Shown here: piece by piece, positions 6,001 through 9,000 of the stretch
Layout: the number at the start of each line of letters is the position of its first letter
How positions within the stretch are numbered: position 1 is the first letter of the stretch
Source of the DNA: an uncultured Mycoplasmatota bacterium
GTDB lineage: Bacteria; Bacillota_I; Bacilli_A; RF39; UBA660
DNA length: 64,000 bases
Assembly: GCA_946498975.1 (NCBI GenBank)
Contig: CAMMQC010000002.1
Coordinates: 47,845-111,844 of the forward strand
Reading direction: 5' to 3'
Program-made: the position numbers

Positions 6001-9000
6001 TATTAATAAAATACATTAAGAATAACATATAAGGTAAAAGTAATAAGGCAAATGTATTAATACCTTGTTTTAAGGCAGGAATAAAGAATATAAGTATTCC
6101 TAAAACTATTCCTATTATCAAGATAAACATAGTAGTCTTTTTAGCACTGTCAATTAAGATTTTCCTATGACGTTTTACAAATAAATCGTGAAAATAAGCA
6201 AAGCCACTCTTATCACTAGTTATACCTTTATCAAGAGTAATCTGTTCTCTACTCGTTTTAGTGATTAATTCAGTATTATTAGAAGTATTTGCAACAAAGA
6301 TATTATCTTGTTTTAATAATTCTTTACATAAATACTGATAATTATCATAAGTTAATATTTTTCTAAAAGATGCTATTCCTAGTATTAAAGTAATAATAAA
6401 AACTATATAGAAAATATTAACTGGAATAACTAAATTATAGTATGGTAATAAATAACCTATTAATAAAAGTGCTATTATTAAACCAAAGTATAAAGTCCAA
6501 GACTTAGGTTTATTCTCATTTATAATGATATTTTTCTTTTTCATACGATAAAAATAAAATACTACAGCAATTGATTTAACACTTACAGTAAATAATACTA
6601 ACATTAGGGCTTGATACCAAGTAATAACATTAAAGAATAATAGTATTAAAGATACTAATTGTCCTATAATAGTACTTCCTAAAAAATAAATAAAGTTAGG
6701 AATAATATAATCTTTCGCCCTCGTTTTCATTAAGACTATTAAATAGTATTTATCTCTTGTGGGATTGAATATTTCTGTATTAGAAAAACTTCCAATTAAG
6801 GCTAGAAATATATAAATATGTATTATGTAACTAACATCAAAACCTTTATAAAGAGTTAAAGGTAATAACAAGAATATATATATGTATAGTAGTTTATAAC
6901 CAAAAGTCCTAATTATTTCTCTTATAATAAAGATTATAAAACTAATTACTTTAAAACTCTTAAAGCTATAAAACTTAGTAGGTATTATTTTACCTATTAA
7001 AGGTAATTTACTAATACCATAGATAATCTGATTAACAGTATAAGCATTCTTTACTTTTAAAGATATTAAAAAGTTATTAAGCATCTTCTTCACCTTTTAA
7101 GATATTAATTATTTTATTCTTTAATTCTTTATCTGTTAGTTCATCTCTTTTTATTTCTAAAAGTTCCCCCTTATTTAGAACTACTATCTCATCACATAAA
7201 TCTAGAGCAAGTTCCATAATATGAGTAGAAAAGATAAGAATTCTATTCTTTTTCATTTTCTTTAATAACTCTTTCATCTCTTCTGCTACTACAACATCAA
7301 ATGATGTTAAAGGCTCATCTAATAATAAAATATTAGGACTTGCTATTAAATAGATTAACATTTGCATTTTATTCTTCATACCATGAGAATAATCTTTCAT
7401 AAGCTTATCTCTATCTTCTTTATCTATTTTAACTATATCAAAATATTCATCTATAGTTTTTAAGTCTTTAATGTTATCTTTATTAATATCTATAAAGTAT
7501 TTTAAAAACTCTCTTCCTGTTAGAAATTCAGGTACTACAGGTGTTGATAGAACATAACCTATATCACTACTTTCTATTTTTTTATCAGACTTGCCATCAC
7601 TTAAATAAAACTCTCCACTATCACACTTTAAATCTTCATTTAAGCAGTTAAAAAAAGTAGTCTTTCCTGCTCCATTTCTTCCTAATAATCCATAAATCTT
7701 ACCACTTTCAAAAGTAAAATTAATATTTTTAAGTACACACTTTTTATCAAAGCTTTTATTTAGATTTTCTATCACTAACTTCATAATAACTCCTCATTTC
7801 TTTTTAAGTCTATCATAGATGAAATTAAATGACAATATCTATAATTTTTACTTAAAATTATATCTTATACAGTGGTAAAAATTACCAGTAAAAACTTTAT
7901 ATTTTTAATTGTTATAAGATATATAATATGTTACTATATATTTAGGAACATTTAATAGTTGGGTGGGGCCTCAGAAAGGAGGTCGATATAATGAACAAGA
8001 AAGATTCATTGATCGTTGCTTTAGTAGTTATAATCCTTTTCCAAAATCTATTACTGCTTTTAGCTTTAATATAGAAAAGCCACCTAACTCACAGCGTTGA
8101 ATTAGGTGGAACAACAATTATATAGGTTTCACTCAACACGGTAATATTAAGTGTTCCTACTTTTTTATTTTATGCAAATTTCTTTGACATATTAATAGTA
8201 TCACAAAATATTATATTTTTCAAGTTATAGAGATTAAAAACTACTATAATATTTCTCTATTTTATAGTTATTTATAATATCTTTACTTATCTTAAGATTA
8301 CCTCTGCCAATTCCTAGATTATGATTTTCTTTATTAGTACCATGATAGTCACTTCCTCCTGATATCAAAAGGTTCCTTTCCTTTACAAAATCAAGTAAAT
8401 AATTAGTTTGTTCTTCACTAAACGTTGTATAAAAGCACTCAACTCCATCTAAAGCAATTTCATTATAAAGTTTATCTAGAAAGTTTTCTGTATCAGTAAA
8501 TTTATATTGATAAGGATGTGCTAAGAAAGCAATACCACTGTTTTCATGGATAAGTTTTACTATTTCTTTGATAGAAGGTTTAAACTCAGTATGATTTATA
8601 AACAATTTACTTTTAGGATTAGTTAATCCTTTTCTATAGAAATTACTAAAAGATGCCCAAATGTCTTCTTTTAGTTTTTCTTTATTATTTTCGTATTTTA
8701 CTAATTCTTCATATATTCCACGTTCAAAAAACTCATTTGCAAACTTTTTATCTCTCACTCTTTCAAGATGAAACTCTAAATTAAGTTCTTTTATTTTATC
8801 AAGTAATCTATTATAAAGAATATTGGTCCTTTTATTAACCAACTCATCACTATAAAACTCTTCTAAATATTTATTAACATTTTTATAATCAAAACCATAA
8901 CCTAATACTTCTATTAATCTATTATCAAAACTAGTAGTAAATTCACATCCTACTAATACATCTCCTTTATATATTTCTTTTACATTAAACTTTTCCATTT

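Follow-up and report, generated by a model that had tools for sequence, protein, structure and literature searches.

Type I toxin-antitoxin (TA) loci encode a small hydrophobic peptide, and their mRNAs are marked by pairing of the Shine-Dalgarno (SD) sequence with an anti-SD, by a long-distance interaction between their 5' and 3' ends and, in Gram-positive bacteria, by an antisense RNA on the 3' side (PMC8594479, PMC6733600, PMC6563280). Among the described systems, bsrG/SR4, txpA/RatA, bsrE/SR5 and yonT/SR6 of Bacillus subtilis have a 3'-overlapping antisense RNA, while hok/Sok of plasmid R1 and aapA/IsoA of Helicobacter pylori have an mRNA whose two ends are locked together. The par locus (Fst/RNA II) of the Enterococcus faecalis plasmid pAD1 combines convergent transcription towards a hairpin behind the stop codon, an mRNA 5' end held in a helix, an SD in a stem-loop and a small hydrophobic toxin. 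Here we describe three cassettes in a stretch of 64,000 nucleotides (hereafter the window) from the contig CAMMQC010000002.1 of an uncultured Mycoplasmatota bacterium, each of which, with a probability that we put at roughly 0.7 from sequence evidence, is a self-contained unit in which a sense and an antisense RNA are transcribed convergently, with the build of a type I TA locus. They are best read as members of a new family of type I TA-like modules, "type I" being an assignment based on architecture.

With the B. subtilis systems the cassettes share an SD enclosed in a local hairpin; bsrG/SR4 and txpA/RatA are the closest in the 3' overlap of the two RNAs and in the likely decay of the duplex by RNase III (PMC6563280), which by analogy would be expected here as well. 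However, there is no sequence or profile similarity between these systems and the peptide or RNA of the cassettes, and the Bacillus peptides have 28-60 amino acids (aa), whereas those of the cassettes have 22-33 aa and an N-terminal charge. Also unlike the Bacillus systems, the antisense RNA of the cassettes would overlap only the 3' untranslated region (UTR) and at most the stop codon, the mRNA would close its ends in a helix of ~26 bp abutting a U-run, and the loci lie outside prophages, between housekeeping genes, in 1-9 copies per genome. With hok/Sok and aapA/IsoA the cassettes share the end-to-end lock of the mRNA and a fold backed by covariation, and aapA/IsoA is likewise multicopy on the chromosome. 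In hok and aapA, however, the long-distance interaction carries the anti-SD and trimming of the 3' end activates translation (PMC6733600), whereas the SD of the cassettes is closed locally; the antisense RNA lies 5' of the open reading frame (ORF) in hok/Sok and over it in aapA/IsoA, fully overlapped by the mRNA (PMC8594479), whereas that of the cassettes would cover the 3' UTR; and hok and aapA occur in Proteobacteria/Epsilonproteobacteria, the cassettes in Bacilli. The par features listed above (documented in part in PMC8594479) are common to par, the Fst/SprA1 superfamily and the cassettes, but both par RNAs stop at a shared terminator and interact via direct repeats outside the overlap (PMC8594479), whereas the cassette mRNA would run on for ~90 nt past the post-stop hairpin and the overlap itself would be the region of interaction; the Fst Pfam profile did not match the cassette peptides at E up to 10. 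Judged by peptide and RNA profiles, the cassettes belong to none of these families.

The window (25% G+C) contains exactly three cassettes according to a profile hidden Markov model (HMM; 7890-8234, 44493-44860 and 49051-49410, E 1e-62 to 1e-71), all on the plus strand, in gaps separating minus-strand genes, and alignable across ~350 bp. Chance is ruled out by these E-values, by a 32-nt pattern from the conserved tail that matches three times in the window against 0.00 expected, and by the z-scores of the minimum free energy (MFE) folds. The original prediction had ascribed six features to the three blocks (a 5' arm, a G/C-rich stretch containing GGGUG, an SD with a short hydrophobic ORF, a post-stop hairpin, a 3' arm with a U-run and a conserved tail), and all six were found where it had placed them. 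Two details needed correction: the 3' arm departs from an exact reverse complement of the 5' arm by one U.G wobble per copy (with the U in the 5' and the G in the 3' arm), and the U-run does not follow the 3' arm immediately, 1-2 nt intervening in the window copies. The end-to-end pairing is present but extends further than had been noted, a second helix (GGGUG.../...CACCC) bringing it to ~26 bp in total. The features of the three copies are as follows, where H1 and H2 denote the two helices and TSS the transcription start site.

7909..7937, plus strand: copy 1 sense promoter, TTGTTA, 17 nt, TGT-TACTAT (extended -10), predicted TSS ~7943-7944, read from the sequence
7944..8166, plus strand: copy 1 predicted toxin mRNA (~223 nt), MFE -63.4 kcal/mol, z -5.19, 28 bp between the ends
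7944-7957 and 7958-7971, plus strand: copy 1 5' arms of H1 and H2; 8124-8137 and 8145-8158: 3' arms of H2 and H1
8138-8144, plus strand: copy 1 bulge (ACGGUAA); 8161-8166: U-run
7976-7982, plus strand: copy 1 SD; 7991-8074: ORF (MNKKDSLIVALVVIILFQNLLLLLALI)
Copy 1 inverted repeat I5: 15 nt, 93% complementary
8072..8188, minus strand: copy 1 predicted antisense RNA (~117 nt), with 5' hairpin, central hairpin and terminator, -32.4 kcal/mol, z -4.53
8109-8080, minus strand: copy 1 antisense terminator stem, followed by CUUUUCUA, a terminator-like site
8195..8223, minus strand: copy 1 antisense promoter, TTGAAA (8223-8218), 17 nt, TGA-TACTAT (-10 at 8200-8195), from the promoter scan
44514..44542, plus strand: copy 2 sense promoter, TTGATT, 17 nt, TGG-TAGTAT, TSS ~44549-44550, from sequence and family consensus
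44550..44787, plus strand: copy 2 predicted toxin mRNA (~238 nt), MFE -88.8 kcal/mol, z -9.03
44550-44562 and 44565-44572, plus strand: copy 2 5' arms of H1 and H2; 44751-44758 and 44768-44780: 3' arms of H2 and H1
44759-44767, plus strand: copy 2 bulge; 44782-44787: U-run; 44698-44726: post-stop hairpin
44575-44583, plus strand: copy 2 anti-SD CCUCUUUCU; 44608-44615: SD GAAAGGGG; 44624-44692: ORF (MSKKDSLIVILLLIIILLIIYR)
44692..44810, minus strand: copy 2 predicted antisense RNA (~119 nt), three hairpins, -34.1 kcal/mol, z -4.96
44817..44845, minus strand: copy 2 antisense promoter, TTGAAA, 17 nt, TGA-TACTAT, from the promoter scan
49072..49100, plus strand: copy 3 sense promoter, TTGTTT, 17 nt, TGT-TATTAT, TSS ~49107, from sequence and family consensus
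49107..49337, plus strand: copy 3 predicted toxin mRNA (~230 nt), MFE -68.3 kcal/mol, z -6.04
49107-49119, plus strand: copy 3 5' arm of H1; 49296-49309 and 49317-49329: 3' arms of H2 and H1
49310-49316, plus strand: copy 3 bulge; 49331-49336: U-run; 49254-49276: post-stop hairpin
49180-49248, plus strand: copy 3 ORF (MSKKDFLISVLLIIIILLIIFG)
Copy 3 inverted repeat I8: 13 nt, 92% complementary
49246..49358, minus strand: copy 3 predicted antisense RNA (~113 nt), -32.5 kcal/mol, z -4.88
49276-49254, minus strand: copy 3 antisense terminator stem, followed by UGUUUUUA, a terminator-like site
49365..49393, minus strand: copy 3 antisense promoter, TTGAAT (49393-49388), 17 nt, TGA-TAATAT (-10 at 49370-49365), read from the sequence

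Homologous cassettes, whose absence from related genomes would have spoken against the proposal, are numerous. At least 115 further loci were found in species-representative genomes with the tail pattern alone, and nhmmer retrieved 145 copies from 32 species-level metagenome-assembled genomes (MAGs), 1-9 per MAG and sometimes in tandem. The hosts are uncultured gut Bacilli or "Tenericutes" MAGs, Candidatus Onthousia (Bacilli incertae sedis) and its relatives, one complete chromosome of 1.52 Mb among them. No match was obtained in plasmid and phage collections (blastn, distant mode), nor did the tail pattern match in IMG/VR. A search of the whole window against Rfam at gathering scores returned 0 matches, so that no known antitoxin RNA family (Sok, Sib, RatA, SR4-type, RNAII/fstAT, IstR, OhsC, SymR, RdlD and others) is represented; copy 2 searched at E up to 10 gave chance matches only, the sole related one being sok, which scored 12.2 bits (E = 2.7) where the gathering score is 59.

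The sense promoter, TTGnnn-N17-TGnTAnnAT, is present in 89 of 93 unique copies and ends 4-7 nt before the 5' arm; the 5' arm is therefore taken to be the very 5' end of the transcript, whose predicted length across the family is ~225-260 nt. The end-to-end helix consists of H1 (~13 bp) and H2 (~12 bp), separated by an A/C-rich bulge of ~7 nt on the 3' strand only (0-1 nt opposite), and with a total of ~26 bp it ends 0-3 nt before the U-run. Folding of each mRNA, as had been proposed, paired the 5' end with the 3' end in the MFE structure of all three window copies, and the same was seen in 93 of 93 unique mRNAs, a set restricted beforehand to copies with 11 or more of the 12 arm pairs, as found in 105 of the 109 unique copies. 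In a sequence-only MAFFT alignment of 40 non-redundant homologues, 97.9% of the H1 cells are paired and compensatory changes occur in 9 of the 12 pairs; 0 of 500 shuffles reached the observed score, and registers slid along the alignment gave at most 50%. In the ~31 U.G cells of H1 the U comes from the 5' arm and the G from the 3' arm, which assigns the structure to the sense (plus-strand) RNA.

The sequence of H2 varies by subfamily. RNAalifold on a full-length MAFFT alignment, the middle of which is unreliable between subfamilies, recovered H1 only, and an alignment of mini-constructs missed H2; because the H2 arms were misregistered by MAFFT, H2 was tested by duplex energies and by an anchored permutation count. 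The mean duplex energy is -21.0 kcal/mol for cognate arms, -14.6 kcal/mol for non-cognate and -10.1 kcal/mol for shuffled ones, and in the anchored, gapless count 88% of the positions are paired versus 73.6 +/- 1.9% after permutation of the 3' arms (maximum of 1000 permutations, 81%). The tests of H1 and H2 bear out the covariation of the 5'-3' helix, which had been claimed from three copies and holds in the 40 non-redundant homologues. The long-range pairing is worth -14.2 kcal/mol relative to the best fold lacking it. Given that the sense strand has only a weak local hairpin (-7.5 kcal/mol) ahead of the U-run, the model that we prefer is one in which the long-range helix itself would serve as the terminator stem of the mRNA.

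Convergent to the sense promoter, a promoter on the minus strand is best read as TTGAAA or TTGAAT, a spacer of 17 nt and the extended -10 TGATACTAT (copies 1 and 2) or TGATAATAT (copy 3). The claim of a minus-strand element resembling TATAAT or TAAAAT therefore stands as far as a convergent promoter is concerned, but the -10 is better placed at TGATACTAT/TGATAATAT, and the conserved TTCAAG end of the cassette is the -35. The copy 3 promoter is in register with those of copies 1 and 2 but falls under the scanner threshold (9-of-12). Across the family, 77 of 93 copies have an antisense -35 of TTGACA (38), TTGAAA (23) or TTGAAT (16) at a distance of exactly 17 nt from TGATACTAT; this hexamer lay outside the search pattern and was hence unselected. 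The sense -35 is never consensus, and the antisense -35 is nearer to consensus than any sense -35. As to the other end of the transcript, the post-stop hairpin was confirmed and its role revised: its U-tail is on the minus strand, and it is therefore the terminator of the antisense RNA, with a polarity visible in the plus-strand flanks, of which the 5' one is rich in A in 51 copies and the 3' one rich in T in only 2.

The predicted antisense RNA (~115 nt) of the three window copies folds, with z-scores of -4.5 to -5.0, into a hairpin at the 5' end, a central one and the terminator. In a sequence-only alignment the central hairpin is 94% paired, with compensatory changes in 7 of 9 pairs, no score as high in 500 shuffles and at most 47% in slid registers; its 55 U.G cells would each be an A.C mismatch on the sense strand. 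The same DNA folds with -13.2 kcal/mol as antisense versus -7.5 kcal/mol as sense RNA, and the antisense form is the more stable one in 37 of 40 homologues. In its loop the central hairpin carries the complement of the mRNA bulge, and the probability of this stretch being unpaired, P(unpaired), is 0.77 versus an antisense-RNA average of 0.41. Given this complementarity and the variation of the bulge sequence among paralogues, each sense/antisense pair may have a nucleation site of its own. Beyond the loop, the predicted antisense RNA is complementary to the whole 3' UTR of the mRNA including both 3' arms, an overlap of ~95 nt.

A separate complementarity, of 82-88%, links the first codons of the ORF (AAGAAAGATT...) to an A-rich stretch (TTAAAAAATNTATCTT) that immediately precedes the sense -35 and lies outside the predicted mRNA; in the window, it joins 44486-44507 with 44630-44651 and 49050-49065 with 49186-49201. 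It may be due to chance in AT-rich DNA, or may be relevant if the antisense RNA reads through its terminator.

Pairing of the SD had been proposed for copy 2, and across the predicted mRNAs the SD is less open than in 35 control genes from the window: P(unpaired) of the SD core is 0.16 versus 0.45 in the controls, and that of the start codon 0.21 versus 0.46. The partner of the SD is local, namely an upstream CCUC-type element in 55%, a segment of the ORF in 28% and the 3' UTR in only 1%; in the fold of copy 2 the SD pairs with the upstream CCUCUUUCU. Two mechanisms known from other systems were considered and are not supported. Activation by 3' trimming as in hok and aapA finds no counterpart, the truncated RNA being no more open (0.12 vs 0.16), and when the 3' arms are lost or occupied the mean change of the SD is small and inconsistent (0.16 to 0.12), which favours neither hok-like activation nor SR4-like closure.

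The ORFs encode 50 distinct peptides of 22-33 aa in ~5 subfamilies (MSKKDSLIVILLLIIILLIIYR, MNKKDSLIVALVVIILFQNLLLLLALI, MRKIEKFLCYIIFSLVFIIIVLLFMLIKIVPTP, MKTKTFIIKVLKLIPLILLSLSFLVLTFKIK and MSKKDFLVSTLLFIIILLIVLLFVVIIILI), each peptide with a K/R/D-rich N-terminus followed by an unbroken run of I, L, V and F. Variable sites within subfamilies are distributed over codon positions 1, 2 and 3 as 69:34:117, and single-nucleotide codon differences are synonymous in 592 and non-synonymous in 337 cases; by this substitution pattern the small ORF is genuinely coding. Apart from its hydrophobicity the peptide sequence is loosely constrained, and the C-terminal halves are unconserved within and between subfamilies. 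The view that the peptides fall outside any named toxin family agrees with searches of Pfam and NCBIfam with ten representative peptides at E up to 10, which gave only chance matches to unrelated families; the toxin profiles (Fst/Ldr, Hok/Gef, Ibs, TisB and others) were not matched. An exact look-up in a collection of 15 billion proteins found 0 of the ten peptides, from which it follows that their genes have never been called.

What characterizes the type I class can thus be set beside the cassettes. There is a coding ORF for a hydrophobic protein of fewer than 60 aa with a potential membrane-spanning segment, there is a predicted antisense gene (promoter, terminators and covarying hairpin) whose RNA would be able to pair with the toxin mRNA, and in the predicted folds the mRNA would restrain translation through SD/anti-SD pairing and the 5'-3' interaction. 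The coding ORF, the covarying helix, the buried SD, the antisense promoter, the polarity of the terminator and the antisense-specific hairpin support the type I TA interpretation of the original prediction at the level of sequence. Four points weigh against it. The family was gathered by a pattern lying within the antisense promoter and 5' hairpin, and ~25 positions are therefore conserved by construction; the smallest peptides, of 22 aa with ~15 hydrophobic residues, are on the short side for spanning a membrane; many of the type I toxins described from Gram-positive bacteria carry their charge at the C-terminus (PMC6563280), whereas the cassette peptides are charged at the N-terminus; and the closure of the SD is independent of the long-range helix, 3'-truncated and nascent forms being equally closed.

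The same RNA architecture could also regulate a benign small membrane peptide, such as a modulator of membrane proteins or a stress peptide, for which the RNA-level evidence fits equally well, and the stability of the copies at the same chromosomal sites beside housekeeping genes in many species would suit it. We nevertheless regard a harmless product as unlikely: three layers of repression (a buried SD, a sense promoter weaker than the antisense promoter and full 3' overlap) usually accompany harmful products (PMC6733600), a genome of ~1.5 Mb contains 1-9 diverged paralogues with no conserved partner gene, and the sequence is hardly constrained beyond hydrophobicity.

If the cassettes are type I TA modules, we propose that the sense promoter would give an mRNA whose first nucleotides are the 5' arm, and that the end-to-end helix would provide the terminator stem and guard both ends from exonucleases, resulting in a stable but barely translated mRNA. 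The antisense RNA would nucleate loop-to-bulge (and possibly also by a loop-loop contact at the terminator) and invade the helix to form a duplex of ~95 bp, which RNase III would cut, baring the 5' end as in txpA/RatA and bsrG/SR4. When the antisense RNA drops, the peptide would be made and the membrane damaged. A more specific reading, which we put forward tentatively and consider rather less probable than its negation, joins two proposals: the mRNA's 5' terminus would be the upstream half of its own intrinsic terminator, and each paralogue would have its own loop-to-bulge recognition code. Upon emergence of the 3' arms, the helix would close first at H2 and next at H1 and stop 0-3 nt before the U-run, making termination, end protection and the inert fold a single event, and the covarying hairpin of the opposite strand would read the variable 7-nt bulge of the helix with its loop. 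If this is true, the arrangement would be a sense/antisense design not described before.

The homology between cassettes begins ~25 nt upstream of the sense -35 and ends directly behind the antisense -35, with no crisp repeats at its termini. The neighbouring genes fall into 42 unrelated clusters with no conserved partner gene; by eye, we take them to be mostly housekeeping (e.g. pyruvate kinase, Fpg, SmpB and a sigma factor). Relative to the toxin ORF, the gene lying upstream is encoded on the other strand in 55 cases and shares its strand in 23 (~2:1). Because of these limits, neighbours and orientations, a mobile element, a leader of the downstream gene and a fixed protein partner are all disfavoured. 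In the window, copies 1 and 2 are divergent from genes for ATPases of ATP-binding cassette (ABC) transporters (7077-7784 and 43625-44380, both on the minus strand), with an ABC-2 permease gene (42493-43632, minus strand) also at copy 2. ABC ATPases make up 19 of 154 neighbour proteins, which reduce to two orthologous loci, one of them occupied in 11 species. A functional tie to ABC transporters was considered and rejected, the 19 neighbours representing two orthologous loci among 42 clusters. Two neighbours of the window cassettes had no Pfam match, encoded at 48304-48948 (minus strand, 214 aa) and 5504-7093 (minus strand, 529 aa).

The ABC neighbours would also be in keeping with secreted precursors of hydrophobic signalling peptides, of the SHP/Rgg or the enterococcal iCF10/prgQ type, the output of which is tuned by a countertranscript. 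The charged N-terminus and hydrophobic core resemble the n- and h-regions of signal peptides, two of the three window copies are divergent from ABC-transporter operons, and prgQ is likewise under countertranscript control. A signalling function is nonetheless very unlikely, as no receptor or regulator gene is linked, the 42 neighbour clusters being unrelated and the ABC neighbours amounting to two orthologous loci; the C-terminal halves, where mature pheromones are located, are unconserved; and a genome has several differing paralogues, sometimes in tandem.

A small non-autonomous mobile element, similar to a miniature inverted-repeat transposable element with the arms as its inverted repeats, was rejected as scarcely credible. 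It would account for the multiple copies with conserved ends, for AT-rich inverted matches (71-83%) between the two promoter regions and for the different subfamilies found in different species at one ABC-transporter locus. The inverted repeats had been named as possible termini of such an element, but the covarying arms are internal to the unit and coincide with the predicted ends of the transcript instead of the homology borders, where crisp terminal repeats are missing. Moreover, strand-specific wobbles are a property of RNA and not of DNA, the ORF bears a coding constraint, 11 species have a cassette at the same site, and plasmids, phages and IMG/VR gave no match. Scans for direct repeats at the three window cassettes found none at the borders, which are fuzzy, and no search was aimed at target-site duplications. 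Next to no weight is left for the minus-strand transcript being a cis-regulatory leader (attenuator or riboswitch) of a downstream minus-strand gene with the ORF incidental, an idea that we reject: all three window minus-strand promoters do face a minus-strand gene 290-350 nt further on, with a terminator between, but the orientation to neighbours is not fixed (55 opposite, 23 same strand), the downstream genes are unrelated, Rfam gave no match, the ORF has a coding substitution pattern, and the covariation of the sense-strand helix includes wobbles specific to that strand.

It is common for cassettes from different peptide subfamilies to lie in tandem clusters, among them our loci L034 (three copies in 8 kb) and L009 (three in 4 kb) and further L002, L017, L026, L027, L045, L049, L050, L059, L068 and L072, and at one conserved ABC-transporter site the subfamily varies by species (MRKIEKFL... 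or MSKKD...). The clusters and the exchange of subfamilies at one site suggest local duplication and replacement. Some cassettes are on contigs assigned to unrelated taxa. A divergent peptide, MSKKDFFTLLLFLIIFLLIALMFYKQ, is encoded at L033, in a record titled Vescimonas coprocola (33% G+C) that may represent a more distant host; for L108 and L114, in records titled Muribaculaceae (27% G+C), the low G+C suggests contamination in binning. At L085, L054, L067, L075 and L053 the ORF is damaged or the 5' half replaced, while the 3' arms and the antisense promoter are kept. Such decayed copies would be the pattern expected if loss of the toxin is tolerated and loss of the antitoxin is not, in a sample that is biased toward intact tails.

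The design joins features that have so far been seen apart, the 3'-overlapping antisense RNA of Bacillus and the end-to-end mRNA lock of hok and aapA, and suggests two ideas: that a long-range helix may bring about termination, and that paralogues may avoid cross-talk through a variable bulge and loop. With ~145 copies in at least five subfamilies, the family is a natural data set in which one DNA stretch is under two RNA structures of opposite strands, each with strand-specific wobbles. Since gene callers miss these loci, MAG annotations would be missing both genes and small RNAs, in each case up to nine or more per genome. If confirmed, this would be a type I TA family confined to a lineage of uncultured gut Bacilli with small genomes in which no such systems have been annotated.

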